Source: Peribolospora baueri | Taxonomy: Eukaryota | DNA length: 64,000 nt | Direction: 5' to 3' | Assembly (NCBI GenBank): GCA_029717555.1 | Contig: JAMDHS010000003.1 | Coordinates: 124,001 to 188,000, forward strand | Part shown: piece by piece, positions 3,076 to 53,561 of the stretch | How positions within the stretch are numbered: position 1 is the first letter of the stretch | Layout: every line of letters begins with the position of its first letter | Notes under the pieces: generated by a model | The model's database searches: none | What the model was told of the DNA's origin: nothing | What the model saw: only the letters and a program-made list of their open reading frames with translations | Made by a program: the position numbers and the translations under genes

Positions 3076-3361
3076 ACCTTTTCTTTCCCTTTTCTCGGAA
3101 ATTCTTGCTAATTTTTTTGCTCAGCATAAGCATAGGTTTCAGCAAGAGGTGCCCCGGCGATATTGCCTACGAATGCAGCAGGTGTGAATCTTACCTGGGA
3201 CTCCTTTTTGTCGCTCCAAGTGGGACGAACCGCCCGTAGGCAGAACGTGACGATCTGCCGCAGTGATTTCTTCTTGCGGTGATCGTGTCTCCTCAGGTCT
3301 GTCCTTCCCGACCGCCTGCTGTTTCCGTCGACGTCGATCCAACAGTCGTCGCTATACCAAG

Positions 3362-4459
3362 ATGTTATCGTCAACGTCCAGAGCTACCGTCTTCGCGCTC
3401 TCATTACGAGCTTCTCCCCTCGCCCAGCCGAGCAGGAACAGCGTCAGGAGGGCATTCGCGGCCGCCGATGGGCTGCAGACTGATGCTGGGGCGTCCCGGC
3501 GCCTCTTGAGGACCTCCGCCCCCGCCTTTGTCGCCCAGCCCTCGCCGCCTTCGCCCAGCGCTCCCGAGTCATCCAAACCCGACGGTCCCAAGGCGTCTCC
3601 CCCGCCGGCTGGGCGGAATTACTCACCCCTGACCGTCTCTGTCGTGCGCGGCATGGCGTTGCTGATGGGCTACAAATCGCGCACTTCGACGGCTATCCGT
3701 GTGACGAGCGATTTGTACGACAGGTGTGCGGAGAGGGCAGAGATGGAGGCACAGTTCTTCTACAAAGGTAAGCTGGCCGAGGGCCTTGACCAATCTCGAC
3801 GGACAGCTGATTTTTTTGCCCCATTTCTTCCAGAATGCGGCCTCCCCGAATCGTACCAGACTTGGTTCCAAATCACCAACCTGCACGTCTGGCTCCTCCT
3901 CGTCCGTTTCCGCTCCATGCCCAAGCCGCTGGCACGAGTGTACACGCAAGAGCTCGTCAACCACTTTTTCCTCGACGCCGAGCACAGGATGAGGCAAAAG
4001 TTTGGTGTTACGACCAGCAGGCTCGTCAAGGGATACATGAATGAAATGTTCGAGCAGCACAGAGGCGCCGTTGTTGCTCTCGACGAGGGGTTGGCCGCCG
4101 GTGACGCCGTGTTGGCCACCGCGCTGTGGAGGAATCTTTGGGGAGCTGGGTGGGGTACCGTCGGCGGAGTGAAGAGCAAGGCCAAGGGCGTGGACAGCGG
4201 CGATGGAGTGGGCGAGGCCGAGGTGACAACCGAGGACTCTCGCGCCGGTGAGGAGGCGGCGGAGGCGGCGTCACTGGGGCCTCAAGTCGACCCGTCCCTT
4301 CCTCCCGAGTTCGCCTTTCCCATCATACTCTCCCGGCTCGTCGAGTTCCTCCGCAAGGAGACGTACCGGCTTCAGGCCCTCAGCGACGACGACGTTAAAA
4401 TGGGGAGGCAGCCGACGCCGGCCGGGGACATGAACCTGGCGAGCTTCGGCAAGGTGTGA
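3362..4459 (+). CDS. CBP3: Mitochondrial ubiquinol-cytochrome c reductase assembly chaperone Cbp3
   Basis: Arg/Ser-rich presequence-like N-terminus. Motifs CGLPESYQTWFQITNLHVWLLLVRFR, LVNHFFLDAEHRM and DEGLAAGDAVLATALWRNL. In-frame 66-nt intron GTAAGC...TTCCAG at 3768-3833. Confidence 0.93.
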   Translation: MLSSTSRATVFALSLRASPLAQPSRNSVRRAFAAADGLQTDAGASRRLLRTSAPAFVAQPSPPSPSAPESSKPDGPKASPPPAGRNYSPLTVSVVRGMALLMGYKSRTSTAIRVTSDLYDRCAERAEMEAQFFYKGKLAEGLDQSRRTADFFAPFLPECGLPESYQTWFQITNLHVWLLLVRFRSMPKPLARVYTQELVNHFFLDAEHRMRQKFGVTTSRLVKGYMNEMFEQHRGAVVALDEGLAAGDAVLATALWRNLWGAGWGTVGGVKSKAKGVDSGDGVGEAEVTTEDSRAGEEAAEAASLGPQVDPSLPPEFAFPIILSRLVEFLRKETYRLQALSDDDVKMGRQPTPAGDMNLASFGKV

Positions 4460-23719: not shown

Positions 23720-26700
23720 TCACCCGCACCGTTCCTCCTCCTCCTCCTCTGGCAAGTCATCGGTCGCGTACCGCCGAGCTTCAACAGAGCTCCTCTTGCT
23801 GCCATTATCGACCGGCGACCTCAATCGGTTGAGCGCGTCTTTGCTGCGTGCCCGTGATCTCCTCGCACCGCCGGTCACGTCTTCCTCCTCCTTATCACCA
23901 CCACAACCAAACTCCGCTTGAGCGTGAACTTGAGTATAATCAAGAGCAGTGGTGGGAGTGCCCTGCGACGGAGGGTAGATGCCCTTGATGTCAAAGGGCG
24001 AGAAGCCAGTACCCCCGCCTCTGGCGGGGGAGGCAGCCGCGCGCCTCCCGCGACTTGGACTGCGACGCGTCCGAAGCGCGCCAGCGCTTTCGAAAGTCAA
24101 GTCCGAGGGTGAGCAGTAATACCGAGGGAGGCCAGGGAGGAGAATCCTGCCTGTCGAGTCGGTGGATCGCGAGCGCGCAAACACAGGGCTGAGCGACTCG
24201 GACGCTGCGGATGCGGATCCGGACGGGGCCCGGAGCACGCCTCTGCCACGTCCCGCGGCGCCGCGCAAGCGCGACAAGGAGTGCTCCGCGCCGGATGAGG
24301 AAGACGCATCGCTACTGCTGGTACGGCCACTTTGGTCGTCGAAGTACTGACCGTGAGTTTCGTCTCCAGCGCGCTGGGATGACGAGTCTCTACATCGGAG
24401 ACCTGCCCGGTACGCCTCGGCCCGGTCGCGCTGCAGACGAGTGTAGGCAGATATGGGGGGAACGGAGCGGTTACGACCGCCAGCTCTGTCCCTGCTCGTC
24501 CGTTCCACTGGGACTGGGCAGGAGAACATGGAGGCGAATTGGTCGTCCTCTTCGTCGGGCACGTAGTCCTCAATCAGCGGCCGGACCCACGCCGAGCGGA
24601 CGACGTCAATGATCGTCCAGCGTCGTTCGGGCTCCGGCTCGAGCATGCCTCTGAGCACCTCCCTGGCCTGAGCGCGCTCCTCGTCAGCGCCCGCCCAACG
24701 GTCCAGAATCGGATCGCCCGTCTCCGTCAGCGCCTCCACCAACCGATCCGGCATTTTCCACTGCGCCCTGACGATCTTCATCATCAACCTCGGTTCGAAG
24801 CTGTCCATGAACGGCAGTTTCCCGGATAACAGCGCGTACAGGACGCACCCGGCCGCCCAAATGTCCACGGCCGGCGAGAGAGACAGATCGGCCATGTTCC
24901 CGATCGACGCGGTGGTGCTCGCGCCCGCGTGCCCACCGGAAGTGGCCTTATCAGCACCTGCAGGGCTCGAAGTACGCGGAGGCCCCAAGTTGCGGAAGCG
25001 CAAAAGCTCCGGGGCCGTGTAGGGAAGGCTGCCACCAGGCATGATTGCGGCCGGTGTGTCCCCCTGTACGTCCGGGCTCTCTGCGTCCATCGCGCTCATG
25101 CTCGTTCTCTGCCTAGTGCGACGAGAGCCGCGGCTGTCTTCCCGTGGCTGAATACGGCGAGACGAAGAGGGCGCCAAGCTGGCTCCGCGTTGGGGGAGGG
25201 TGGCTGCTGAAGCCGGAGAAAAGGCCGACGGAGGCGGCCGGCCTGACACCGACGGGGCGCCCGGAGAAAGCGCTGGAACGGCCGTGAAACGTTCGGAGAG
25301 CTCGCTGAAGCCACCGTGGGCCAGCTGGGCCTTGGCCATGTCCCCCGGGCTCCGGCCCCTGGCGGCGCCAGGCTCACTGCCAAGGGAGAGGAAGGGGTAC
25401 GCCTCCTCTACGGAAGCGAATGCGCGAGTGTGACCACCTTGAATATTTTGTAGCCCCAGTCGTCCGTCGCCGAACCAAACATGACGAGAGGGGGAAGGCA
25501 GCGGCCGATGATGTCTTCCGGGACGGTCACGAGACGGATGATGGTAAGCGTAGTGGAAGTCGTGCATCAAAAGGTCCGGCATCCACGCCCGGGCGCGCGA
25601 ACTGGCCACCTTGTATGCCCGAGCGGTCTGCTGCTCGGACGGGCTGGACGGGATGACCTCAGCAAGGCCGAAGTCGGCCAGACGCCACGATCCGGCGCGC
25701 CACGCCTCGTCTTCCGGCTCTTCTTGACTATCAGCGGCGGTCGACGCTGCGCTCGACCCGGTCCCTTCCACTCTCCCACCGGTGGCTTCCTCATCCTCGA
25801 GGTCTCTGAGGATATTCTCGAGTTTAACGTCCCGATGCACTACGCCCATCTCCTCGTGCAAAAAGTAGAGCGCGCTGACCAACTTGGCGAATATGCGCTG
25901 TGCGACGCCGAGATCGAGACCCCGTCGCTCCACACCCTGTGAAGGCCCGGCGGAGGACACGGAGAGCGCTGAGGAACGGGACAGAGTGGACGAGGCGCTC
26001 CGGCGAGCACTGCTCAAGATGGGAGAAAAAGCCGAAGTCGGGCCGTGATTGACGCTGGCGCTCCTTCCCACGTTCGACCTGTTCGCTCCGCTGCTGCTTC
26101 GCCGCCTGCGTGCGCGATCGTCCTCGCGGGCGTGATTCCTAAGAAAGTCAAGCAGGTTGCCCCCTTCGCATCGCTTCATCACGATCCAATGAGCAAAGTC
26201 GGTCTCGATGATCTCCACCAATGGTAGGATGTGAGGGTGCGGCGGGAGGTTGCTCCAGATGTACAGCTCGTTCTCCAGCGCATCCTCCCGATCCGCTTCC
26301 TCGGCCTCGACCTCCGAGCCCTCCACTCGACGAGCCAAATCACGGGGCGGCAAATAGCCAGACGAGGTGAGAGGCGCCAGCTCAGCTTGGGATGGCGTTA
26401 GAGGCGTCTTGTAAACCACTTTGACGGCCAGACGCGCCGTCCGACGGAGGTGACGGCGCTCGCGAGATCGACTCCTAACAGGCGCGCTGCCCGTTGAACC
26501 TGGGCCGTTTTCCGAAGCGGCCACCGCCGTCCTGCTGGATCGCCCACGACCGCGCTCTGGTTCGGCCTCCGACCCTCTTTCGCCCCAGCCGCGGCCCCTG
26601 CTGTCCACCTCGAGCGCCTCCGCCTCTGCGCCCGCCCAGAAGGCCTCCTTGACGACGCTGAAACCGCCAAAGCCGAGGGGTCTGCCAATCATGTAGTCAC

Positions 26701-27334
26701 CAACGCTCTGCCCTTCGTCGTCCGGTTGCGTCGAGCGCGTCCCCTGCTCATCAGGCACGGCGTCCCACAGCATCGCGCGGCGGACATCGTCGGACAGAGG
26801 CGGCACCTGATCGGTCTCTGTTGTAGTGGACGCGAAAGCGGAGAGTGGGGAGGACACGGGAACGCTGTTGCGCAGGCTGAACGAGCTCAAGAAGTCGGCA
26901 GCAGGAGAGCGGATGATAGCGCTGTCACCGGCGCCACCCGCGTACGCGTCGTAAGACGAGAAAGAGGGCCTAGGTTGGCGAACGCGAGCTCGGTCTCGCG
27001 GATGGGTATCGTCTTCGCACGGTGGCGGGTGGCCAGCGGAGGTGCCGTGGATCGCGGGGCTGGATGGCGTCGCTGTCATCGTCGTCGTCGCCGCCGCCGA
27101 TGGGCCGGGTAAGGGAGTGCGGACGGAGGAAGGCGAGAAGACGCCCCTGGTGGCGAGGAGGCTCTGGGGAGGGCCGGCAGCGCTGGAGAGGTCGAGAGCG
27201 GCGGGAGCGCTAAGACCAAAGGGGTCGTAAAGGGGAGAAGAGACTTCGTCATCTTCGTCATCTTGTCTATGGAAGGGGATCTCCAAAGGATGGAGATGAG
27301 GAGACGCGGTCCGGGAAGCCCCTGGGGGGGACAT
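23720..27334 (-). CDS. Ser/Thr protein kinase (CAMK-like group, Nnk1-like), single exon with large insertions
   Basis: PDDEGQSVGDYMIGRPLGFGGFSVVKEA, LAVKVV, ENELYIW, HPHILPL, VHRDVKLENIL, LADFGLA, GSLPYTAPE and VDIWAAGCVLYALLSGKLPF. The first ATG (MSPPGASR) is at 27334, although the open frame extends to 27511. Confidence 0.9.
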   Translation of the reverse strand: MSPPGASRTASPHLHPLEIPFHRQDDEDDEVSSPLYDPFGLSAPAALDLSSAAGPPQSLLATRGVFSPSSVRTPLPGPSAAATTTMTATPSSPAIHGTSAGHPPPCEDDTHPRDRARVRQPRPSFSSYDAYAGGAGDSAIIRSPAADFLSSFSLRNSVPVSSPLSAFASTTTETDQVPPLSDDVRRAMLWDAVPDEQGTRSTQPDDEGQSVGDYMIGRPLGFGGFSVVKEAFWAGAEAEALEVDSRGRGWGERGSEAEPERGRGRSSRTAVAASENGPGSTGSAPVRSRSRERRHLRRTARLAVKVVYKTPLTPSQAELAPLTSSGYLPPRDLARRVEGSEVEAEEADREDALENELYIWSNLPPHPHILPLVEIIETDFAHWIVMKRCEGGNLLDFLRNHAREDDRARRRRSSSGANRSNVGRSASVNHGPTSAFSPILSSARRSASSTLSRSSALSVSSAGPSQGVERRGLDLGVAQRIFAKLVSALYFLHEEMGVVHRDVKLENILRDLEDEEATGGRVEGTGSSAASTAADSQEEPEDEAWRAGSWRLADFGLAEVIPSSPSEQQTARAYKVASSRARAWMPDLLMHDFHYAYHHPSRDRPGRHHRPLPSPSRHVWFGDGRLGLQNIQGGHTRAFASVEEAYPFLSLGSEPGAARGRSPGDMAKAQLAHGGFSELSERFTAVPALSPGAPSVSGRPPPSAFSPASAATLPQRGASLAPSSSRRIQPREDSRGSRRTRQRTSMSAMDAESPDVQGDTPAAIMPGGSLPYTAPELLRFRNLGPPRTSSPAGADKATSGGHAGASTTASIGNMADLSLSPAVDIWAAGCVLYALLSGKLPFMDSFEPRLMMKIVRAQWKMPDRLVEALTETGDPILDRWAGADEERAQAREVLRGMLEPEPERRWTIIDVVRSAWVRPLIEDYVPDEEDDQFASMFSCPVPVERTSRDRAGGRNRSVPPISAYTRLQRDRAEAYRAGLRCRDSSSQRAGDETHGQYFDDQSGRTSSSDASSSSGAEHSLSRLRGAAGRGRGVLRAPSGSASAASESLSPVFARSRSTDSTGRILLPGLPRYYCSPSDLTFESAGALRTRRSPSRGRRAAASPARGGGTGFSPFDIKGIYPPSQGTPTTALDYTQVHAQAEFGCGGDKEEEDVTGGARRSRARSKDALNRLRSPVDNGSKRSSVEARRYATDDLPEEEEEERCG

Positions 27335-27875: not shown

Positions 27876-30800
27876 TCACAGCGAGATCTTGGGCGGTCGA
27901 GGCGGAGCGGGGCCGCTCGGCAGCTCCTCTCGCAGCTCCTCCTCTTCCTCCTCCATCGGGTCCTGTTCCGCCCATTCATAGGCGGATGGCCTCCAGGGAT
28001 CTTTGATCGGCCCTCCACTTCCACCGCCGCCTCCACCGCTACCCGCCGCCACACCCCCCCGCGCCAGCCCGAAGGACATCGGCGCTGAGTTGAGCGAGCT
28101 CTGAGAGTCGGAACGGACCGCGCGTCGCTTGCCGGCCGACACCGCCGGGTCGCGAGGGAACAGGACTGGCGACGACATATTGCTGTTTCCGTCCCCTGCC
28201 CCCATCCCCGCCTGCATGGACTCGTACGTCGTCGGCAGGGGCGTCATTGGGGAGGAAGCGCTAAAGCTCGCGCGCTCCGTCAACGTCGACATTATCGAGC
28301 CTGCGGACAAGTCACGCGACATGGCTTGTCGAGAGTTGTGGTCGCGGCTGCTTGATTCACCTCTGTGGAAGGCTTCCACTTGGTTTATCGCGGCGTAGTA
28401 GCGCGCCATTTGCTCCTTCTCCGTGGCAGCGGATGGAAAACTCGTCGGCGATGCTGCTACGGGCGTTGAGCTGATTGAAGGACCGGGAGTGGGCAGAGTG
28501 CGTTTCGTGGACGCAGACGAGAGCCTCCGCTCGTTGGCCAATGCAGGGGCGCCCGGATCGCGGGCATGCTTTGTCGGTGCCGAGCCACTGGAGTCGCTGG
28601 AGACGGGCTGGTTTTGCCGAACGGCCTCCTGAGCGACGTAGGACCGCCGCATCTGCTCCTGTTCGAGCGCGGAGGCAGACTGATCTTTCGAAGAAGACGA
28701 AGCGCTGGCGACGTTCATACCGAATGTGGGAGTGACATCACCTGCCGAGAAGAGCCTGCTCTCCGAGCCCGTGGGGGACGAAAGACCGCGCTGGTACTCG
28801 GAGGTCTGCTCGCGTGCCGCGTAATATCGACGGAGCTGCTCTTTCTCAGACTCGGCTGAAATGGACGGCTGCGACCTGGCGGGATCTATGGACTTCGGCT
28901 TGACTGACTGCTGGTGTCCAGGCAAAGGGCTCTGTTCAAGCGGTAGCGACGATGAGACTGCAGGGGCGAGGTTTTCTCCGGACGTGGAGGATGTCCAGCC
29001 CACTTCCATCTGATATGACGGGATCGGTACCGTTTGATATGGCTGCCCTCCTTCCACCCTCGCGTATCCTTGCGCTTCCTCCTTGGCTTCGAGGTATCGC
29101 TGCAGCTGCAACTTCTCGTCCGCGGCCGAGGGCGCGGCCGAAGTCCCTGACCGCCCCAAAGAGGCCGGATGGGTCGAGTCTGGTGCTCGTGACGGGGTGG
29201 CGCTGGCTGAAGAATGGGACACGTGACTGCCCGACAGGCGATTCGGAACGACGCCGGTGCTCGCAGTGGAGTCGACGGTGGGTGGTTGCAAGTTGGCGAG
29301 TACGCTCTTCCGATGCTCCGCTTGAACTGTGCGAGCTTGGGCTTTGGTAAGCATGTACAACCGTTGCTTCTCCTCTGCCGCCGAGATGTAGGACAAACGA
29401 GGGGAGGACATGGCGGTGCCGTTCGATAGCGAAGACGTGCTCCCTTCAGGAGGTCGAAGACTTGCAGACGAGTCGTTGACCGGCGATTTTTGCAACGGGG
29501 ACGACCCTCGACTTGAATTCGAGGCTGAGGGGATGGCAATCATAGACGCTCTCCGGTCCACGTCCGTGTGCAGTGGAGGAGGCGGCGGCGATTGAACGTA
29601 CTCCGCCGCGCCGATCCGCCCAGCCACAGCCTCGGCAGCCTTGCTTTGCAAGCGTTCTGCCTGCGCCCGGGCCCGCTCGTACAGTTGCACCTTCTCAGCC
29701 TCTGCGGTCATGGCCCCTTCGCCAGCAAGATAGGGTTGGCTATAACTTTGCCCACGGATGCCATGATGTTGTAGCGCTTTCCGCGCCACTGCTGCCTCCT
29801 GCGAATCCGCCGGCGACGGCGGATTGGTAAGGACGGCCGATGGTGGCCGCGAATTTTCACGCTTGTTGAAGAAAAAGCTAGGGTTGCTGGCGCCGCCACA
29901 CTCGGGGTGTAGAGACTGGAGGCCGTGTGAAAGTCCGATGCCGGCCATGCCCGGAGTGACCACCTTCGTTACCCCTGCCGGCGACGCCGCCGACGAGGAG
30001 ATGCTGCCTTTGCTTTGTGCTCGAGAAAGTACCCGTTGTTCGTTCGACGACGACGACGACGAAGGCGCTTGTGGAGGCGTGTATAGTTGCGGACACAGGC
30101 TAGCCACGTAACCTATGCGCTCGACCATAGCGGCGGAGGTCTCCTTAGAAAAGTTGGTGATAGTCATCGGTATGTGATCGAGGATGATATCTTGAGTGCC
30201 ATCCATACCGGCTCGCACCCGCAAACTGAGAGGGACGAAGTATAGCGCGAGATCAGTTATATCTGGCGTCATGATAACATGGCTCGGTAAGGAAACTGCC
30301 GCTCACTGATACGAGACATCCAGGTGTTTGGCCGTCCGAATGCTCGTCAGCTGATGACCATCAGGAACCGTACAGGTGATGTCGTACGCCTTGACGTCTC
30401 CTTTGTACAACTTCTCATTCATACTTCTGTTCTTGGTGACGACTTCGTCAGAGCGCTGAGCGGCAGCTTTCTTGCACGAACTCGTGCTGGTGCCTCCTCG
30501 GAACGTGATTGTCTGTTTGAGCGAGATGGCGATCGCTTTGAGCTTGATTGGAGAGATCCGGTCGGACCGGACGATGACTCTGACAGAGATCTGATCTCCG
30601 GGTCCGGCGCAGTTCGACGATCCTGTGTGTCGACCAGGCCCACACGCGCGGTTAGACAAGGAACTTGAGCCGGAGAGCACTAAAAATGAAACTCACGAAG
30701 CAACTTGACCGTGACATCTTCGACCGAATTTTCTCGCTCTTCGGGGAAACTGGAAGGGGCGTTTGCCCGCCGCAGACACACACGAGCTTGGTCATTTTTC

Positions 30801-31723
30801 ACGCGCGCTCGAAGGAAGGAATTGGTGCCATGTCACTCACTGATAAAGGGGCCAAGCCGAGTGAAGCTCATGCTTGAACAACTCCAACGTGTGCGTGGTC
30901 TGCAGAACGGGCGTCGCCTCCTTGCGCAACAAACCTCTGAAACAGCAAAGACAAATCAGAGACATTTGATTTCGGAAGGCACCATGGGACGAACCAAGAC
31001 GCTTTGAGCTCACTTCTTGGATTTGACGCAGAGGCTGGCGACAAGCTCGTATTGGATACCGCAATTCCTGTCTACCTTGGCCATCGGCGGAAGGCCTTCC
31101 GGGATCATGATTTTGAAAGGGAAGTCGGCCTATACGTCGCAGCAGCGGAAATGGTCAAGTCAAGAAGCGCGGCGATAGGAACCACGGCCATTCAGTCCGA
31201 TGGGGAAGAACCCGTTATGGGCCGGGACACTCACAGTGCTAAGGACCTCCCACCCTCCATGAGCAGCCTCCCATACGTTGATCGGTCCGTTTCCGATGAG
31301 CTCCCCAAACGTCTCGCCGCCGTTTCCCGGCAGCGACTCGAGCTTGCGCAACTCAATCCTGAGCCAGGTGGCCTTGTAGCCGCGTGCGCCGAGGCGCACT
31401 TCTATCGTCCCGGCAATGTGAGCCGCGGGACGATCGGGGCCGGCGGGGATGCCGGGGTAGCCTGGCGAACGAAGAGGCCGCCGAAGGGACAGGAGCTTGA
31501 GCGTAAGGATGTCCGAACAAAACGCGCGGAGGCGACTGTTGGTCGCGGCGACGAAGACGGCATGCGCCTACACCTACCTCGGATGAAATCGACATGCGGA
31601 GGGGGCCGAAGTGTACTGGGAGCGATGAGGTGGTTTGGAGCAGGGAAGGAAGGATGGCTCTTTGAGCGAGGACCAGGACGTGGAGAGCCGTGAGTGCACC
31701 ACTCACAGCTTCGATTGAGTCAT
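27876..31723 (-). CDS. Arrestin-fold (immunoglobulin-like sandwich) protein with a long low-complexity, repeat-bearing C-terminal tail, multi-exon
   Basis: Spliced N-terminus MTQSKLTLRPPPHVDFIRGYPGIPAGPDRPAAHIAGTIEVRLGARGYKATWLRIELRKLE...DFPFKIMIPEGLPP...IQYELVASL, then GPGDQISVRVIVRS...LKQTITF. These beta-strand patterns resemble arrestin N/C domains. The last exon is the roughly 790-codon ORF ending PPRPPKISL*. Confidence 0.72.
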
Positions 31724-32035: not shown

Positions 32036-32845
32036 ATGCGGCGCGGCGCAGGCCTAGCGGCGTTTGAGCGAGCCGCGCACAGCTCGGCCCAGTTCTCCTC
32101 TCTCGGCGACGAGCTGTCCACACAGCAGATCGACCACCTCCGCTCGCAGCTACAGACGTTCCAGTCGGCGCTGCGCACCTTTGCCGTGCGACATGCGCGG
32201 GATATTCGCAAGGATCCCGTATTCCGGATGAACTTTCAACGCATGTGCGCCAGCATCGGCGTCGACCCGCTCAGCGGCGGGCGGCCTGGAGGCGGGGGAG
32301 GAGGTGGCGGCGGCGCGGGGGGATTCTGGGCGGATCTGCTCGGCTTGGGGGATTTCCAGTACGAGCTGGCGATTCAGATCATCGACGTGTGCGTCTCGAC
32401 ACGCCATCTCAACGGCGGACTCATCGAGATGGACGAGCTGCTCCGACGGATAGCCAAGATGCGGGGCGCGGGCTCCGATGCCGACGCTGACGCTGGTGCA
32501 GGCGCGATCACAGCCGACGACGTGCTGCATTCCCTCAAGACGCTCGCTCCCCTCGGGTCGGGATACGAGGCGCTCACCATCGGCTCCAAGCGCATGGTCC
32601 GCTCCGTGCCCCGCGAGCTCGACACCGACCAGGGCGCCATCCTCCTCGTCGCGGAGCAGGACGGGCAGGGCTTCGCTACCGTCGACTCGCTGGTGACCCC
32701 CAGACCGCCGAGCAAGGGCGCATGGACCGGGGAGCGCGCCAGAGCGGCGCTGGACAATGCAGTGAGGGACGAGCTGTGTTGGGTGGACGAGCAGGCGCAT
32801 CCACCGAGATACTATGTCCTTAGTCTGACCGGCATCGACGACTGA
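32036..32845 (+). CDS. SNF8: ESCRT-II subunit Snf8/Vps22 (EAP30), single exon
   Basis: MRRGAGLAAF...FAVRHARDIRKDPVFRMNFQRMCASIGVDPL...LGLGDFQYELAIQIIDVCVSTRHLNGGLI...LGSGY...RSVPRELDTDQ...WVDEQ. Confidence 0.96.
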   Translation: MRRGAGLAAFERAAHSSAQFSSLGDELSTQQIDHLRSQLQTFQSALRTFAVRHARDIRKDPVFRMNFQRMCASIGVDPLSGGRPGGGGGGGGGAGGFWADLLGLGDFQYELAIQIIDVCVSTRHLNGGLIEMDELLRRIAKMRGAGSDADADAGAGAITADDVLHSLKTLAPLGSGYEALTIGSKRMVRSVPRELDTDQGAILLVAEQDGQGFATVDSLVTPRPPSKGAWTGERARAALDNAVRDELCWVDEQAHPPRYYVLSLTGIDD

Positions 32846-43547: not shown

Positions 43548-46500
43548 TCAGACGGCTATCGTCCCCTCGCGCCTCTCGCGCATGCCTTGGTCGCCGACAT
43601 CGTCGTCGTCGTCCAGGACGTAATGCTCGCCAGCCTCGAAGAGCGTCTCGTCCGCCTGCGCGTGAGCGGCATCGGCAGCGCCGGAACCGCGGGCGGAGGC
43701 GGAGGAGGCGCCGCGGACGGGCCGGTGGAGCGAAGCGGCACGATGACGGACGGCGGCGGCCTCCTCCTCGGCTTCGGCGCTCATGTGCGCCCGGCGGGTC
43801 ATGTAGCCCTTGATGGCGAGGAGGATGAAGATCCAGCAGAAGACGACGGAGACGACGGCGACGGTCACGTTGAGCGTGGCCATGAGGTCGTCTGAATTCG
43901 TAAAGCGAACAAGCGGAGAAAATGAGCGAGCGAACGCGTGCGGACGGCAGAGGATGACAGACACTCACCATATCCGCTGCGCATGGAGGCAAACGTGATC
44001 TGCTCCACGCTGAGCATGAACACGAGTCCGCCGCCGGTGAGACCAAACGCGGCAAGGACCTCGGTGGGCGGGCGAGAAGGAAGAACAGAAGTGGGGGGGC
44101 GGAGCCAGAGGAAGAAGTAGGTCATGCACCGGAAAACGCCAAAGCCGCCGAGGAGCATGCCCCAGAGCTTGTGAACCTCGACGGCGTATTGATAATCTTG
44201 GCTGGAGGGACGCGAGGGGAGGAAGGGACAGATATCAATAGGGGGCGCCCATGGCCGACGAGGACTACCAACACAGGACAACTCACTGATGCGCGCTCAT
44301 GGCGATGCCGGTGACGCCGACGACGATGGCAGGGAACGGGTTAAAGCTGCCAGAGTAGCTGGGCGGCTGCTTCTGGGCGTCGACGATGCCGCTCTGCTGC
44401 TCCGCCTCGGAGGCGGTCGACGGAAGCCGGCGAGCTGGCACGGCGCTCGGGTGGCGGAGGGCGACGGGCCAGGCGAGGAGGTTGCGGATGGCGCGCGTCT
44501 CGAGGAGGAGACCCATCAGGCCGGCCCACCAGAACATGACGGCGATGCTGATGTGCTGCACCTCTTTGACGGTGTACGCGCTGCCCGGCTGGGCGCCGAA
44601 GCGCTCCATCCACGTGTTCGTCGCGCCGTAGAGGAAGATGAAAAAGCACTCGACCCACTCTGCGCTGGGCGCCTGGGCGCGCCATCCGCCCTCGGTGTGC
44701 GATGGACGCTTGTTCCACGCCCATCCGAGCTCGGCCCAGCAGCCGAGGTAGCGGCCAAAGGTGAGGATTCCATAGCCGAAGAAGATGCCGCCCTTGATAC
44801 CGTGGGCGAGGCACGAGTTGGTCCAGCTGCCGCGGCAGAAGCCGGCGTAATCGCTGATGCCGGTCGCGGCGGCGACGAAGCCGAGGACGACGAGGAGGCG
44901 GGTGAGGAAGATGTGAGTGAACTTGAGCGTTGTCGAGACGCGCTTGTGGAGCGGCGATGCTGACTTTGTGCCAGCGCGAGGGTGGTGACGACGGAGGGGC
45001 GGCGAACGAGTGCGAGAGCCGGCACCGGCACCACCAAAGGCGGTCGTCGGCGTATGGACGAGCGTGGTGGCGGCGCTCAGCGGCGGGCTGTGCGTCGCCG
45101 CCGGGCTGCAGGTACCGGGGCTGGTGGAGATGCGAAGGGGGGTGCGATGATGACCGTCGGGGGAGAACGCGTTGCTGTCCTTCTTCGAGTGCCTCCACGC
45201 CTTGATGCGGGAGAAGCTGGATCGCGCGAGCGTCGCGTCGTCGTTCTCATGGAGGGTGTGGTCGGATCCGTCGGAACGATCGTGGGAGGGCGGGTCGGGC
45301 GAAAAATGGACGCTGTGCTCGCGGGTGTGAGGGCGACGACGCTGGGCGTCCGGGGCCGGGGCGCGGGTGGCAGAGGAGTCGGAGTAGGAAGCCGAGTCGA
45401 GGAGGTCCTCGACGCTGACGTGCGCGGGAGAGGGGTCGACGGCGTTGTCATGGGCATCGCGACGGGACGCGGGCGCGTCATCGACGACGAGCTTCTCGTC
45501 GTCAATCTCCTCGGCGTCGCCGGCGTCGGCCAAGAGCTCTTCCTCGTCCAAGCTGGCGTACGCGGACGCAGAGGCAGAGGCGTCGAGCCGGAGCGAGTCG
45601 CCGCGGAGACCTCGACGAAGGCGCTGCCAGACGGTCTCGCCCTGGCGGCCCTTGGTGGCCTTCCACCAGCGAAGGGTTCGGAGGACGGCCTGTAGAGCGT
45701 CGTAGCCGGTGCAGCCGAGGCCGAGCCAGAAGGTGAACCAGCCGAGTTTGGTGTGGAAGGCGCTGGGGTAAAGGTCCGGGGTGAGACCGCGGTAGGTGGC
45801 GGCGAGGAGGGAGGAGATGAAGGTGAGGGCGAGGAAGAGGAGGGAGCATGGGAGGGAGAGGGCGGAGTGGGCGATGCGAAGCATGATGCCTGGCAGGGAC
45901 GGTGGTGGGAAATGAATGGGTGAGCAAGCAAGACAATGGCCGTCGTCGTCGAATCCACGTCGTTCGCTCACCGAGGGGGAGGACGACAAAGTAGGCGAGC
46001 ATCATGCCGAGGACGTGGGCGACCATGAGGCCGGCATGGCCGCCGGTGGACCTGTGTCGGTCGATGAACTGAGCCCACTTCCACTCGTCGGTGCCTTCTT
46101 TGACGTCGCCTCCGTCGGCGGATTGGTAGACTTGCGGGAAGGAGGCGGGGAGGTCGGCGAGGCCGTAAGCAAAGTCGTACTCGAGGTAAGAGAGAGGCGT
46201 GGGTCCGTGCCAGTAGAGGATGCTGTCCTCGTCCAGCTCGAACTTGGGGGCCTCGTGAGAGTGGGAGTGGGAGTGGGAGTGTCCGCCGCCGCCGTGGCCT
46301 TGAGAAGCGGAGCTCTGGGTGTCGGGCGCTTTCGAGCTGGAGTTGTTGTCGTCGGCTTGGTCGACGATCATGTCGTGGTGGTCGTCGCCGTCGTGACCTT
46401 GATGCGAGTCGATGTGCTCCTCGGCCTGCTTCTGCCCGTCGATGTGCTCCTCCGCCTGCTCCTGCTCCTCGTCGCCGTGATCGCCATGCCGGACCGCGAT

Positions 46501-48950: not shown

Positions 48951-51900
48951 TCAAGCATTCACTCCAAACGCACCAGGGCGGGCCATAAGACCCTTGCTAA
49001 ACGCGTTGGCTACCGTCTCGAAACCGTCTTCGCTCTCCGCCACCTCTTGGAGAAATAGGTCGTGCTGGTCTGCCAGCGCTTCGTTCGTTCGTCGGATTTC
49101 TCGGATGACGCCGTGCGCGCGAGCGCAATTTGGGCACTGTCCAGATTAAATAAAATAGCGACAAGGACGGGTTAGCTTTTTCGCCAGTCCACACCACACC
49201 CACACCCCTCTCTCTCCCCTCTGCGCACCTCCGTCTCACTGTCCGCCAAACAGCGCCGATGATAGCTGTGCCGACACATAAAGTGCACGCTCGGCAGGTC
49301 CAGCTGTCCGCCACACGCCGAGCACTTCGTGACTTGAAACACGCGCGGCGTGTTGGGATCTGACAGCTCTGCCACCTCCCGTAGCTTTTTTGCCGTCTCC
49401 GTGCGGTATGAGTCGATGAGGTGTCGATCCTGCGAACGAGGGGCGACGAAGCGAGTCGGGAATGAATGAAATGCAACCCGAAAGAACACGACCACCGACA
49501 ACCTACCCCTTCGATCTCTCTCTGCTCCCCTTCAATCTCCCGCCGCAGGTAATCGCGCACGAGCCCCACGCTCGCATAGCCCGACCGAGCGAGCATCTGG
49601 ACCACCTCGAGCGGGCTCATGATACCCTCCCGCTCGATCGTCGCCAGAATGTCCGCCATGTCCGTCGAGTGCGTCGAGAGCAGACTCGGCGATGATACGA
49701 GGTACGATAGCACCGTCCCGTACAGGTGCGGGTTCGCCGGCCCATACACCCGCAGCGCTGCCATCACACGCGCCGACCCTGGATGCCCTGGAGCGCTTTC
49801 TCGTGGCGCGCCGCCCTTCTTCTCGTCGGTGACGACGACGCCGACGTCGTCTCCGCCATCGCCTTGCTCGCCGCCCCATTCCATCCACAACCGTACCACG
49901 TCCTCGTACATGCCCAGTCGCTCGTAGAGATAGACCGTGCCGTCGACAAAGCCCTCCATGGAGCACAGCAAGAGCGCATGATGGACGTTATAAGGCAGCG
50001 TCTCGTGCTGTGTCAGCAGCCGGAACGCCTTGGATCGAAGCGCACTTCGACGTTCCGGAGCAGACGGATGAGGCCAAGTCGTCGACGACGACGAAGGCGA
50101 CGGCGGAGAAGGACGGGAGAGGAAAAGGTAGAGCTCCAATAGCGTGTTCCACACGCTTCGCTGATCCCCCTTCTCCGCGTCGTCGTAATCTTCTTCAAAC
50201 TGGCCGCCGCCCAGCTCGAGCTGCAGCTTCTCCATCTCCTCGTCCAACCCATCCGCAATTTCCGTGCTCGCTTTACGCATCGGCGGTCGCGTCGGCAAAG
50301 ACTCTTGCGCCACCGCTTGACCCCACCTCCGCCGAGCGATTTCCTCAAGGAAGCCCATCAACTGATGCGGGTGGTGGACAAAGTGGGCAAAAAAGATGCG
50401 AGGCGAAGGGATTCGGTAGGCAGGTTTCGCCTCCACGGCGGCCGAGTCGCCGAGACCGCCACCACGACCGTTCGTCTCCGTAGATCCTCCCCCGCTCATC
50501 ATCGTCGGGCTGCTTTCACCTTTCGACGTGCTTTGAACCGGTGGCTGACTTCGCTCCTTCCCTGTCCCAGAGCTGCTGCTCACCTCCATCTTCTCCCCCC
50601 CCGTGCCATCGCCTCCGGACAGCTGTGGCTTGCTAGGCTCGGCCTTGCTCGCCGTCGTCGCCTTGCCGTAGCCGCCCACCTGCAGGTAGCTGAGGTAGCC
50701 CGCAGACGGCAAGCGCGCGGCCTCTTGTTTCTTAGCCGCCGCCGCCGCTTCGCGCTCTTCAGGCGATGGCCACGGGACCGGAGAAAAGTTCCCTGAGCAC
50801 AGATCTATCAGCACGTTCGTCGTCTCCACTGGCAAGTGAGACAGGATCGCCTTTCCGTGCTTGAGCAGGATCCTTTCAGCCTGATTTCGCGACGAGCATC
50901 AAGGCGAACCCGGTCAGGGAGACAGGGAAGAAGAGAGAAAGCGAAGGGAAACAGCGACTCACCACCTCAGCATCCATACTCTTCACATAGCCAAGCGCGT
51001 CAGCCCAATCACCCACGTCCTCGACTTGTATCCTGACATACTCGTCATGCTCGCCATACCTCCTTGCGAGGTAGCTCGCGTGAGAATAGTAGCCGGATTG
51101 TCGGCAGACGCGCATTGCCGTCTCGAGGTCGAACGGGAGCTCTTCTTCCTCCTCCGTCGTCCCCGTCTCGTCCGCTCCCTCGGCCGACGCCTGACCGCCC
51201 TGCTTTCTGCGAACACCGTGGCCATCGGCCACTGCGGCTGATGCTGTGGACGGAGAGGCAGAAACCGCATGGGGAGTTTTGATGAAGCGATCCAAGCTTT
51301 GTACGTCTTTGAGCTTCGTGAAGCAATTGAGCAGGAGCGTCGTGTGGTCGCTATTGGCCATGCCGTGCGCGTGAAGGGCCTGGAGGTACGAGGTGAGGTT
51401 GTGAATGCGTTGGGCATCGAGGAACTACGGGAAAAAAAACGAAAGGTTGGGGGGAGGTCAGCTGATATAGATCAGCACTTCTGGGGGCAAGCGAAGACGC
51501 CAGCAGGTTCTTGCGGCTGCTCCGACCTTACGGATGACGTAGCTAGGCTCCGTCCCGCCTTTCGTGATCGTCCTCTCAAACTTATCCACAGCGCCCTCAT
51601 AGTCGCCCTTGAGGTAAAGATGGTCGCCGTACTTGCGATATACCTCAGCCATGGCAGGCGCGTCGGCTCCGTGGCTGCGCGCCAGGCTCACAGCGAGCTG
51701 GAAGAGGTTCTTGCGATAGAGCAGCTCCAGCTTTTGCGAGATAGGTTTTTCCGTCAGTCGAGTGAGCTGTCGTGACCGCAATACGTAGCGTAATCCTGAT
51801 GAGCACATTGAATCGCCGCATCATGATGGGAAGCTTTTCGTTTGTTCGCTCACCCCGCCGTCGTTCGTCCAAACGACCAACTCTCCCCTTCCCTCAGACC

Positions 51901-53561
51901 ACACCTCCTTTACTCCCTTCTCAAACGTGCCGCTATACGCGATCAACTTGTTGTCAAGGTCGAAAAGCGTAACCTTGCTGATATCATTCGATCCCCTGCT
52001 CCCTCCCCTCCCGGCGAAGGCGGAACCAGAATTCATGGGCGAGCCCTTCGTGGGACTACCAAACTTGGTCGGACTGCCAGCGCCAACCTTGGTTGGACTG
52101 CTACTCAAGCTAGAGGTGGAGGCGTTCGCGGCGGGAGCGCGTCCGCTCACGTAGTTTCGCACCGTAGCGCTGGCGCTAGCCGCGGACGGGAGGAAGGGAG
52201 GGCTGACGATGACGAGGTGAGCGGGAGCAGCGAGCGCTACGGAGCTCTTGGGGCCCTCGTAAGCGTAGCAAGCCTCGCGGCCCTCGGCGCCGTAGACGTA
52301 GATAGCCTCCGAGCGAGCTGCGACCATGCGAGGCGCGCCGATGTCGTGTGGCGAGGTGACTTTTTGGGCACCAACATCCTTCCCTGATGGCAGGTCCGGC
52401 GAGAGCATCGCCGCCGGAGGGGCCATGGTTGCGCAGCCAAGACCGCAGCCAACTTCGTCTACGACCTTCGCGGCAGAACCCGAGCCCTTTCCGGTGACGA
52501 TGTAAGAGAGTACCCGCGAAGTGGTAACGATGAGCAGCGTACAACCTGACGCGGCGGGGGTGCCCTGTGCTCCCCGACTTTTGTCACTTCCGCCAACTCC
52601 ACCTCCGCCCGCGTCCCCCTTTCGACCTCCTCCGGTCTTTCCCTTGCCGTCTAATGGCTCTCGAAATCCCAATCCGGTGATAGGTTCCCCCTCACCTCCC
52701 TCGTGTACGACCTTGAACTTGGGTAACGGCGTCGCGGGTGAGCTGCTAGCCGCTAGAGCCTGGTCGAGATGTCGTAAAATGAGGACGCTCCCGTCAGCAA
52801 GGCCGATGGCAAGGTGGGAGAGGGAAGGGGCAAGAGCGAGTGTTGTGATGGGATGGGGCCGATTGCTGCGCTGTATCTGGGACATGCGCAGAAGCAAAGG
52901 TGCCCCCGACTCGTCCTTGCGTCTGAGGTCCCAAATCTTCAGTATGGGGTAACGGGAGGCTTCCTCTTCCTGGAAAAGTAAATCAATGCAAGTCAAATTT
53001 CGTCCAGCCATCATGAGCGTGGAACAAAGCCGACCGTAAAGGGAAAGAAAGCCAACGGGTGATCGAACACTTACGCCAAGAGTGACGAGTGCCCTCCTGC
53101 GACCGATAGTCATGTGCGTCACACGCCCACCCTCATATGCCCTCCAAGAACTCTCAATCTCGTAGTCTTTGTTTATCCGATGAACATTGCCGTCGATGTC
53201 CGCGAGGAGCAACGTGGAGGAAGAGGGGTGCGAGGCAACGGCGAAAATCGAGTTGGGTGTCTACACGAAAGGAAGGGTGACGGAGACGTGAGTCGCGAAA
53301 GGCGACCAAAGTCGAACACGATTGTGCATCGTAAAGAAAACAAACGTACTCGGAAGACTTTGGGAGCGCTCCCAAAGTCATTGACATCCCGGATCGGCGA
53401 TGAGTCGAAAAACTGAAATTGTCTCCACTGGGGCGAAAAGCAGAGAAGGGGTTGAGCTATCGTCTCCCCAGTCATCTATCTGCCCAATCAGCCTTCGAAC
53501 GACTAGACGAAGTACTCACAGCAGCCCCCTCCTTCCAAATGCTCCCCGCCGGCGCCGCCAT
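48951..53561 (-). CDS. VPS11: Vps11/Pep5, class C core subunit of HOPS/CORVET with a C-terminal RING-H2, multi-exon
   Basis: [129 protein letters not shown] and [25 protein letters not shown]..|CPNC. Confidence 0.96.

Follow-up and report, generated by a model that had tools for sequence, protein, structure and literature searches.

A 64,000-nucleotide window of the genome of Peribolospora baueri (assembly GCA_029717555.1, contig JAMDHS010000003.1, positions 124,001 to 188,000; coordinates below count from the first letter of this stretch) carries on its minus strand, at 27876..31723, a gene whose predicted product combines an arrestin-type core with a long tail bearing six copies of a short, predicted helical motif, S/T-A-x-x-E-K-x-x-L/M...Y/F-x-x-A. 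The product is a member of an alpha-arrestin subfamily that is defined by this undescribed, phylum-wide helical repeat. The best explanation of the array, to which we give about an even chance, is that the subfamily comprises adaptors found throughout the Basidiomycota, in which the helices would dock a conserved oligomeric or lattice-forming partner by avidity or cluster together with that partner.

A single open frame of the minus strand holds all six copies, at the places given in a preliminary description made from the letters of this DNA. Tail positions are numbered here by P0001, the translation of exon 8 (P0003 to P0027 are homologues), in which the E-K or E-Q pairs occupy residues 193, 301, 386, 476, 537, and 618. 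Two copies in a short register, where L and Y are adjacent, come first: copy 1 (MTAEAEKVQLYERARAQAERLQ, 29604..29711, 21.4 bits, predicted helix 190-223) and copy 2 (ISAAEEKQRLYMLTKAQARTVQ, 29292..29387, 11.3 bits, helix 298-327). Four copies in a long register, with two extra residues, follow them. These are copy 3 (PSAADEKLQLQRYLEAKEEAQ, 29046..29132, 20.6 bits, helix 383-407), copy 4 (ISAESEKEQLRRYYAAREQT, 28776..28862, 31.1 bits, helix 473-497), the degenerate copy 5 (ASALEQEQMRRSYVAQEAV, 28593..28676, 7.2 bits, helix 534-553), and copy 6 (PSAATEKEQMARYYAAINQV, 28350..28436, 34.6 bits, helix 616-639).

These bit scores were obtained with a profile that excluded all window sequence and drew on the 152 copies carried by 24 other proteins, and this window-free profile recovered exactly the six sites, at 7.2 to 34.6 bits. 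Shuffling the tail 500 times gave a maximum of 5.6 bits, with 0 of 500 shuffles at 15 bits, and the best score among the other open reading frame (ORF) segments of the window (672 stop-to-stop segments of at least 60 residues) was 3.7 bits. Of the six, five are well established, and copy 5 (ASALEQEQMRRSY) ranks lowest in both score and conservation. It has no Lys, with E-Q instead of E-K, its N-cap is displaced, and it shows 0.14 identity in homologues at 0.57 occupancy, versus 0.32-0.56 identity for the other copies. The highest of these values, 0.56 across 13 homologues, belongs to copy 1.

AlphaFold2 modelling of P0001 placed a helix at each of the six copies, with 10-residue block means of the predicted local distance difference test (pLDDT) of 62-91 (about 87-91 in copy 1), while the tail elsewhere was mostly below 50. 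In the AlphaFold2 model of the Sporisorium reilianum homologue, P0019, the tail helices likewise coincide with motif copies, and the remaining tail has pLDDT below 50. The earlier label of the motif as helical is thus borne out by AlphaFold2 prediction alone. No DNA-level repeat was found beneath the six copies, whose mean nucleotide identity is 0.61 over 8 shared codons, and they are therefore old protein-level repeats with diverged DNA, just as had been proposed. The linkers between copies measure 33-81 residues, with 114 residues ahead of copy 1, and S, T, P, G, A, N, and Q make up 62-71% of them. One further short helix, E-A-A-V-A-R-K-A-L-Q, is predicted by AlphaFold2 at 29775-29798 on the minus strand (P0001 residues 159-166). 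The region around it is conserved in relatives, as L-A-P-E-E-x-R-A-L-F-H after a G-P-G-M-A-G-R-G-V-P-G block, and is much diverged in the window protein.

When the six-copy profile was iterated over the family proteins, 158 copies were collected from 25 proteins at a per-domain independent E-value (i-E) of at most 0.01, and the anatomy of the motif could be read from them position by position. Positions 1-3 are M/L/P, then S (77%) or T (16%), then A (97%); E (100%) and K (99%) fill positions 6-7, and L/M (94%) position 10. Positions 11-12, where present, are R-R, and the residues before Y/F are R in 71-76%. Downstream follow Y/F (95%) at position 13, A (99%) at 16, V/A (88%) at 20, and Q (67%) at 24. 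The opening S/T-x-x-E forms a helix-capping box. The spacing from K to the aromatic residue is 3 residues in 55 of the 158 copies, 5 in 47, 6 in 31, and another value in 9, and 16 copies have no Y/F-x-x-A. The helices are 20-34 residues long and about 41% charged, with a net charge near zero. Their mean hydrophobicity is about 0 and their hydrophobic moment at most 0.28, values that, together with the charge, rule out a membrane-inserting amphipathic helix.

Orthologues share the motif, and they share it as an array. The profile of the six window copies, run against longer proteins, gave 19 matches at E≤1 and 15 at E≤1e-3, and the named matches are all from Basidiomycota: Sporisorium, Ustilago tritici, Moesziomyces, Pseudozyma flocculosa, Violaceomyces, Kwoniella, a Tremellales species, Rhizoctonia solani, Serendipita, and Mixia. 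A family member is also present in Meira miltonrushii. The lineages covered belong to three subphyla, Ustilaginomycotina, Agaricomycotina, and Pucciniomycotina. Precomputed arrestin domains accompany 12 of the 19 matches, and the seven without them are N-terminally truncated or on short contigs, except for Kwoniella P0018, which has no precomputed domain although its N-terminus can be aligned with the window core. A phmmer search of the exon-8 protein against 1.84 billion representatives returned only 8 matches at E≤1e-3, all from this arrestin family. In the word-indexed search, the whole exon-8 protein yielded 1 match, with low-complexity words swamping the 8000 candidates, and the exon-7 piece yielded 0. 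Because this word-based search scored the best 8000 candidates, absence of the family outside the Basidiomycota is not proven.

Copy number ranges from 4 to 12 per family protein, with 6 in the window protein. Across 13 homologues, identity averages 0.36 in the motif windows, twice the 0.17 of the remaining tail, and where the arrestin core ends it is 0.34. Within the Ustilaginomycotina the copies align in register from species to species, with invariant A, E, and K columns for copies 1, 3, 4, and 6; each copy has therefore been kept separately. Certain relatives have near-identical copies, including eight TEKEQLRRFLEARDQVAQQQGGMAPPLP units in P0003 (residues 316-720) and about ten YMSAAEEKEMMRRRFEDA units in P0020 (residues 400-950). 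This pattern points to recent expansion or homogenisation, unlike the old, individualised copies of the window protein. Separately, an extra divergent helix, Q-Q-S-A-E-E-K-E-R-[ML]-A-S-H-[YF]-A-R-K-A-A-[KR]-A-E-A, occurs in relatives of the Ustilaginaceae type (P0019 at residues 981-1012, P0008, P0021, P0022, P0024, and P0027); it is predicted to be helical in P0019 and has no counterpart in the window protein.

The reading of the protein as alpha-arrestin-type, with a two-lobed sandwich core, is supported by domain matches, homology, and modelling, in agreement with the arrestin fold first suggested for it. The N- and C-domain core spans about residues 1-335 (30084..31723, minus strand, spread across exons 1-8), and the remaining 735 or so residues form a tail with predicted disorder. 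Pfam Arrestin_C matched the exon 7 translation at E 2.1e-7 (31.8 bits versus a gathering cut-off of 27.7). Residues 1-332 are 55% identical to P0019 (E 4e-135), and core identity is 51% to Violaceomyces, 36% to Kwoniella, 36% to Rhizoctonia, and 33% to Mixia. The P0019 model, built with a 14-sequence family alignment, folds residues 1-333 into a two-lobed beta sandwich, mostly at pLDDT 80-90. Foldseek against the PDB placed the alpha-arrestin ARRD-6 (7usy_J, E 9.6e-15) at the top, and next came visual arrestin (arrestin-1), TXNIP, the beta-arrestins, and Vps26, each over 300-350 columns at E about 1e-13. Since the window protein's own core is homologous to P0019, the same fold would be expected for it. 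Among six homologues, Arrestin_C was above its cut-off in 5 and Arrestin_N in 1, its best stretch overlapping the C-domain region.

The gene model has 8 exons and 1070 codons, with exons at 31723-31707, 31615-31578, 31461-31235, 31129-31014, 30936-30841, 30749-30697, 30622-30307, and 30225-27876 (the last including the stop), all on the minus strand. Exons were placed by tblastn of the full-length homologues P0019, P0008, and P0007 against the window, together with reading of the sequence. All seven introns are GT-AG and measure 74-116 nt, the spliced frame is open over the 1070 codons, and the last exon lies within a large open frame at 27876-30272 (minus strand). A plus-strand ORF at 30941-31693 (250 residues, stop to stop) runs antisense to arrestin exons 2-5 and has no Pfam match. 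It was rejected as spurious, most probably a frame that arose by chance in GC-rich DNA.

The preliminary description could name no family for the motif, and nothing in Pfam, a PDB sequence search, or a literature search supplies one. Pfam assigned no family to P0001 at E≤1, only arrestin and MG2 to six homologues at E≤0.1, and only a chance TGT_C1 match (E 0.036) to the six single copies at E≤10. The six-copy profile had 0 matches in the PDB sequence search at E≤10, and P0001 had only chance matches there (E 0.18). Pieces of the tail, from P0008 and from the window protein, gave no usable match in the ESM Atlas, and five motif strings were absent from the literature searched. Three known helical motifs were compared. 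The ubiquitin-interacting motif (UIM) consists of an acidic run, a hydrophobic residue, and x-x-Ala-x-x-x-Ser-x-x-acidic, and MIM1, which is bound by MIT domains, follows [DE]xxLxxRLxxL[KR]. Neither pattern was found in any of the 158 copies, no Pfam UIM match appeared at E≤10, and the residues before Y/F are basic in the motif where they are acidic in the UIM. The MyPhoNE helix, which docks to protein phosphatase 1 (PP1), has the consensus RxxQ[VIL][KR]x[YW] (PMC11728760). No copy among the 158 fits it in full, since the invariant Glu of the motif stands where MyPhoNE has its first Arg, but the long-register Q-L-R-R-Y does fit its last five positions in 12 of the 158. MyPhoNE goes with a primary RVxF site, and the corresponding pattern [KR][KR][VI]x[FW] was absent from every family tail, and its three matches all lie at the end of the core in P0004, P0006, and P0007. 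With nothing relevant in Pfam either, it is extremely unlikely that the copies are a divergent UIM, MIM1, or PP1-docking MyPhoNE.

Beyond the helices, the tail carries several other conserved elements. A PY-like sequence, Y-Q-T-V-P-I-P-S-Y, lies at 29010..29039 (minus strand) and holds the only [PLVI]PxY of the window protein. Its context, Y-x-x-x-P-[VI]-P-x-Y, is conserved, and P0003, P0005, P0008, and P0009 show VPxY there. VPxY is used by an Rsp5 adaptor. Across the family, PPxY occurs in 11 of the 25 proteins (in two of these, PPxY, or one such motif, is within the core region) and [PLVI]PxY in 17, with several Ustilaginaceae having Y-P-S-Y only. The preliminary description saw no canonical PPxY in the tail, which is literally true, the window protein having IPSY instead; its further suggestion of a separate adaptor class, if read as one that bypasses Rsp5, is not supported by these observations. 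Because IPSY sits where relatives have VPxY, and 11 relatives have PPxY, recruitment of Rsp5 by the window protein is likely on sequence grounds. No P[ST]AP motif was found in the window protein.

At its C-terminus the tail ends in PAPPRPPKISL, and the polyproline P-S-G-P-A-P-P-R-P-P-K (27888..27920, minus strand) fits PxxPx[KR], the consensus for class II SH3 ligands. P790, P793, P794, and K795 are invariant in the family alignment, and 21 of the 25 family proteins have PxxPx[KR] among their final 80 residues, so that the terminus may fairly be called SH3-ligand-like, as it was from the start. Given its PY-like and polyproline elements, the tail resembles that of an endocytic ubiquitin-ligase adaptor. 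Two further elements are a conserved R-D-P-x-V-x-x-G-K-x-R-A (28119..28154, minus strand) and a Trp-containing acidic stretch (DPWRPSAYEWAEQDPMEEEEEE, 27930..28001, minus strand). The former, as DP.[IVL]..GK.[RK], is present in 11 of the 25 family proteins, among Ustilaginomycotina-like, Tremellales-like, and Rhizoctonia/Serendipita members, and a W...W/acidic stretch similar to the latter precedes the C-terminus in P0005, P0008, and P0024.

With these parts in hand, a working scheme for the protein can be sketched. The arrestin core would engage cargo or membrane, IPSY (VPxY or PPxY in relatives) would recruit an Rsp5/Nedd4-type ligase through its WW domains, and the terminal PxxPxK could bind an SH3 protein. 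The helices would act as multivalent stickers on flexible spacers, each docking the same conserved partner surface, which implies a partner that is oligomeric or lattice-forming; the array would bind it by avidity or cluster the adaptor with it. Such a docking array, first put forward with an ESCRT, MIT, Bro1, or coat component as an example of the partner, is plausible as judged from sequence. It is possible, though doubtful in so specific a form, that S-A-x-x-E-K...Y/F-x-x-A represents a previously undescribed, Basidiomycota-specific docking module, whose 4-12 copies would enable an arrestin-Rsp5 adaptor to hold on to, or condense together with, an oligomeric partner such as an endocytic coat, an eisosome-type lattice, or a polymer of the endosomal sorting complex required for transport (ESCRT).

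Several points weigh against such docking. The threshold behind the count of 158 copies is lenient and was applied to a database of 25 proteins, and the 8-exon model was drawn from homology and splice signals alone. Canonical PPxY is absent from the window protein, and [PLVI]PxY is absent from 8 of the 25 family proteins. The variable register between E-K and Y/F-x-x-A is hard to reconcile with a single rigid interface in two halves. Finally, the helices are ER/K-like and might be stable alone, with no partner needed. Taken further, this last point would make them partner-less single alpha-helices of the ER/K type that govern the tail's dimensions or stiffness, and their charge (41%, with near-zero net) and predicted isolation are in keeping with that role. 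Across three subphyla, however, A, Y/F, A, and E-K are near-invariant, which a spacer would not require, and we consider this account very improbable. A somewhat better case, unlikely nonetheless, can be made for helices that bind one another, so that the tail would self-cluster or condense the adaptor at membranes with no external partner. The helices are multivalent and separated by long flexible spacers, the conserved positions of the long register trace a heptad-like stripe, and among solved chains the 12-copy relative P0020 retrieved just CsLinker (8q05_Z), a linker of the algal pyrenoid (E 8.6, not significant), which serves as an analogy of architecture only. For packing against one another, however, the apolar residues of the presumed helix-helix core are only L, Y, and V/A, and the low hydrophobicity and hydrophobic moment given above are weak. 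Helices of the CsLinker type, moreover, bind their client rather than each other, according to the available part of the report (PMC11570498).

It is also conceivable that the helices serve as intramolecular regulators, one at a time folding onto the arrestin core and gating the binding of cargo or ligase, much as the C-tail acts in visual and beta-arrestins. Copy 1, as the best conserved and the one with the highest helix confidence (pLDDT about 84-91 across the P0001 and P0019 models), would be the natural candidate, but a single docking site on the core leaves 4-12 separately kept copies unexplained, and high pLDDT may merely reflect conservation of alignment columns; this mode of action seems distinctly improbable. 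No stronger belief attaches to the idea of modification cassettes, a rather remote prospect in which the near-invariant Lys (as ubiquitin acceptor), the N-cap Ser/Thr (as a casein-kinase-2-like S/T-x-x-D/E site), or both would be the functional residues and the helix would only present them. A helical acceptor context is not known to be a requirement of Rsp5, which counts against it, and the equally strict downstream Ala, Tyr/Phe, and Val/Ala are left unexplained. In its favour, E-K is conserved at 100% and 99% regardless of register, 95 of the 158 copies have [ST]xx[DE] immediately upstream, and 111 have [ST]A..E-K. Alpha-arrestins are, furthermore, controlled through phosphorylation and through the ubiquitination of specific lysines, Rim8 being an example in the portion of the source available (PMC12345238).

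In a fungal cell, alpha-arrestins choose membrane proteins for removal, and their tails are usually described just as carriers of PY motifs and phosphosites. Here is a second tail element, in multiple copies across three subphyla and conserved like the fold itself, in a family spanning lineages of plant and human pathogens (Ustilago, Sporisorium, Rhizoctonia, and Cryptococcaceae). The E-K, Y/F, and A positions offer a mutable handle for finding what basidiomycete arrestins connect to besides Rsp5, and valency could be tested as well. If the partner is oligomeric, the array would illustrate how avidity or a condensate can organise ubiquitin-dependent sorting.

The genes around the arrestin were also surveyed. 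Divergently transcribed at 32036-32845 (plus strand), and starting about 310 bp from the arrestin start codon, is an EAP30-family gene encoding an Snf8/Vps22-like ESCRT-II protein (Pfam E 1.6e-50). Downstream on the same strand, at 23720-27334 (minus), is a gene for a 1204-residue S/P/R-rich protein. Its match to a protein-kinase domain falls into two stretches lying apart, a sign that large inserts may interrupt the domain. At 49000-53260 (minus), two ORF pieces match the N-terminal and clathrin-repeat domains of Vps11/PEP5, so that a gene for a HOPS/CORVET subunit is also present in the window. Other Pfam matches are to a signal recognition particle (SRP) receptor alpha-like protein at 990-2255, a ubiquinol-cytochrome c chaperone at 3251-4456, and a Ytp1-like protein at 44286-46001.

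Comparison with known systems begins with the adaptors of fungal arrestin-related trafficking (ART), namely Art1-10 and Bul1/2 of S. cerevisiae, Art1-4 of U. maydis, and Ali1-4 of C. neoformans. In U. maydis (Ustilago maydis), four alpha-arrestins, Art1-4, have been predicted, and Art3 acts with Rsp5 on the pheromone receptor (PMC9704768, as far as its available text goes); in C. neoformans (Cryptococcus neoformans), Ali2 of the four Ali proteins binds Rsp5, according to the accessible parts of two reports (PMC6867901, PMC11481503). The ART adaptors likewise have an arrestin N- and C-domain core and a long disordered tail with PY-type motifs (PY-like in the window protein). The present family shares its phylum with the Ali proteins and the U. 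maydis Art proteins, and one of its matches is from Kwoniella, itself in the Cryptococcaceae. The available sections of the ART and Ali publications describe no conserved helix array (PMC9704768, PMC6867901, PMC11481503), and the available text of the C. neoformans Ali1 paper lacks the words repeat, helix, helical, coiled, and disordered; the window protein differs further in having IPSY for PPxY. Ali1 itself is probably not the orthologue, a weak indication being that the published primers (PMC6867901) imply a start of MPSRWIPS versus the family start MS.P..L.LR.PPH.

Rim8/PalF and its basidiomycete analogue Rra2 are Rsp5-linked adaptors with PxY motifs (PMC12345238). A Rim8/PalF-like role for the window protein was considered, as basidiomycetes are without Rim8 and an ESCRT-II gene adjoins the arrestin. 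It was set aside because the same partial source assigns the Rim8 role in C. neoformans to a non-arrestin membrane protein and reports growth of a quadruple arrestin mutant at alkaline pH (PMC12345238). Among metazoan alpha-arrestins, ARRD-6 (7usy_J) and human TXNIP (4ll1_C) are the best structural matches of the P0019 core, at E 9.6e-15 and 4.5e-13 over 308-332 columns; sequence identity is just 14-17%, and the comparison is one of cores.

Finally, CsLinker (8q05_Z) has a similar design, with short, S-A-E-capped, charged helices set on P/A/S-rich spacers and acting multivalently, as the available part of the report describes (PMC11570498). Its helices, L-S-A-E-Q-R-E-F-[LM]-E-R-K-A-R, look like those of P0020, of which it is the only PDB sequence match. 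There is no homology between the two (E 8.6), the linker belongs to another kingdom, and its client is Rubisco, so the comparison is one of analogy only and the likeness to P0020 is at most convergence. If the arrestin helices do form a docking module, the family would exemplify a sticker-and-spacer mechanism like that of the pyrenoid linkers, acting in the turnover of membrane proteins.

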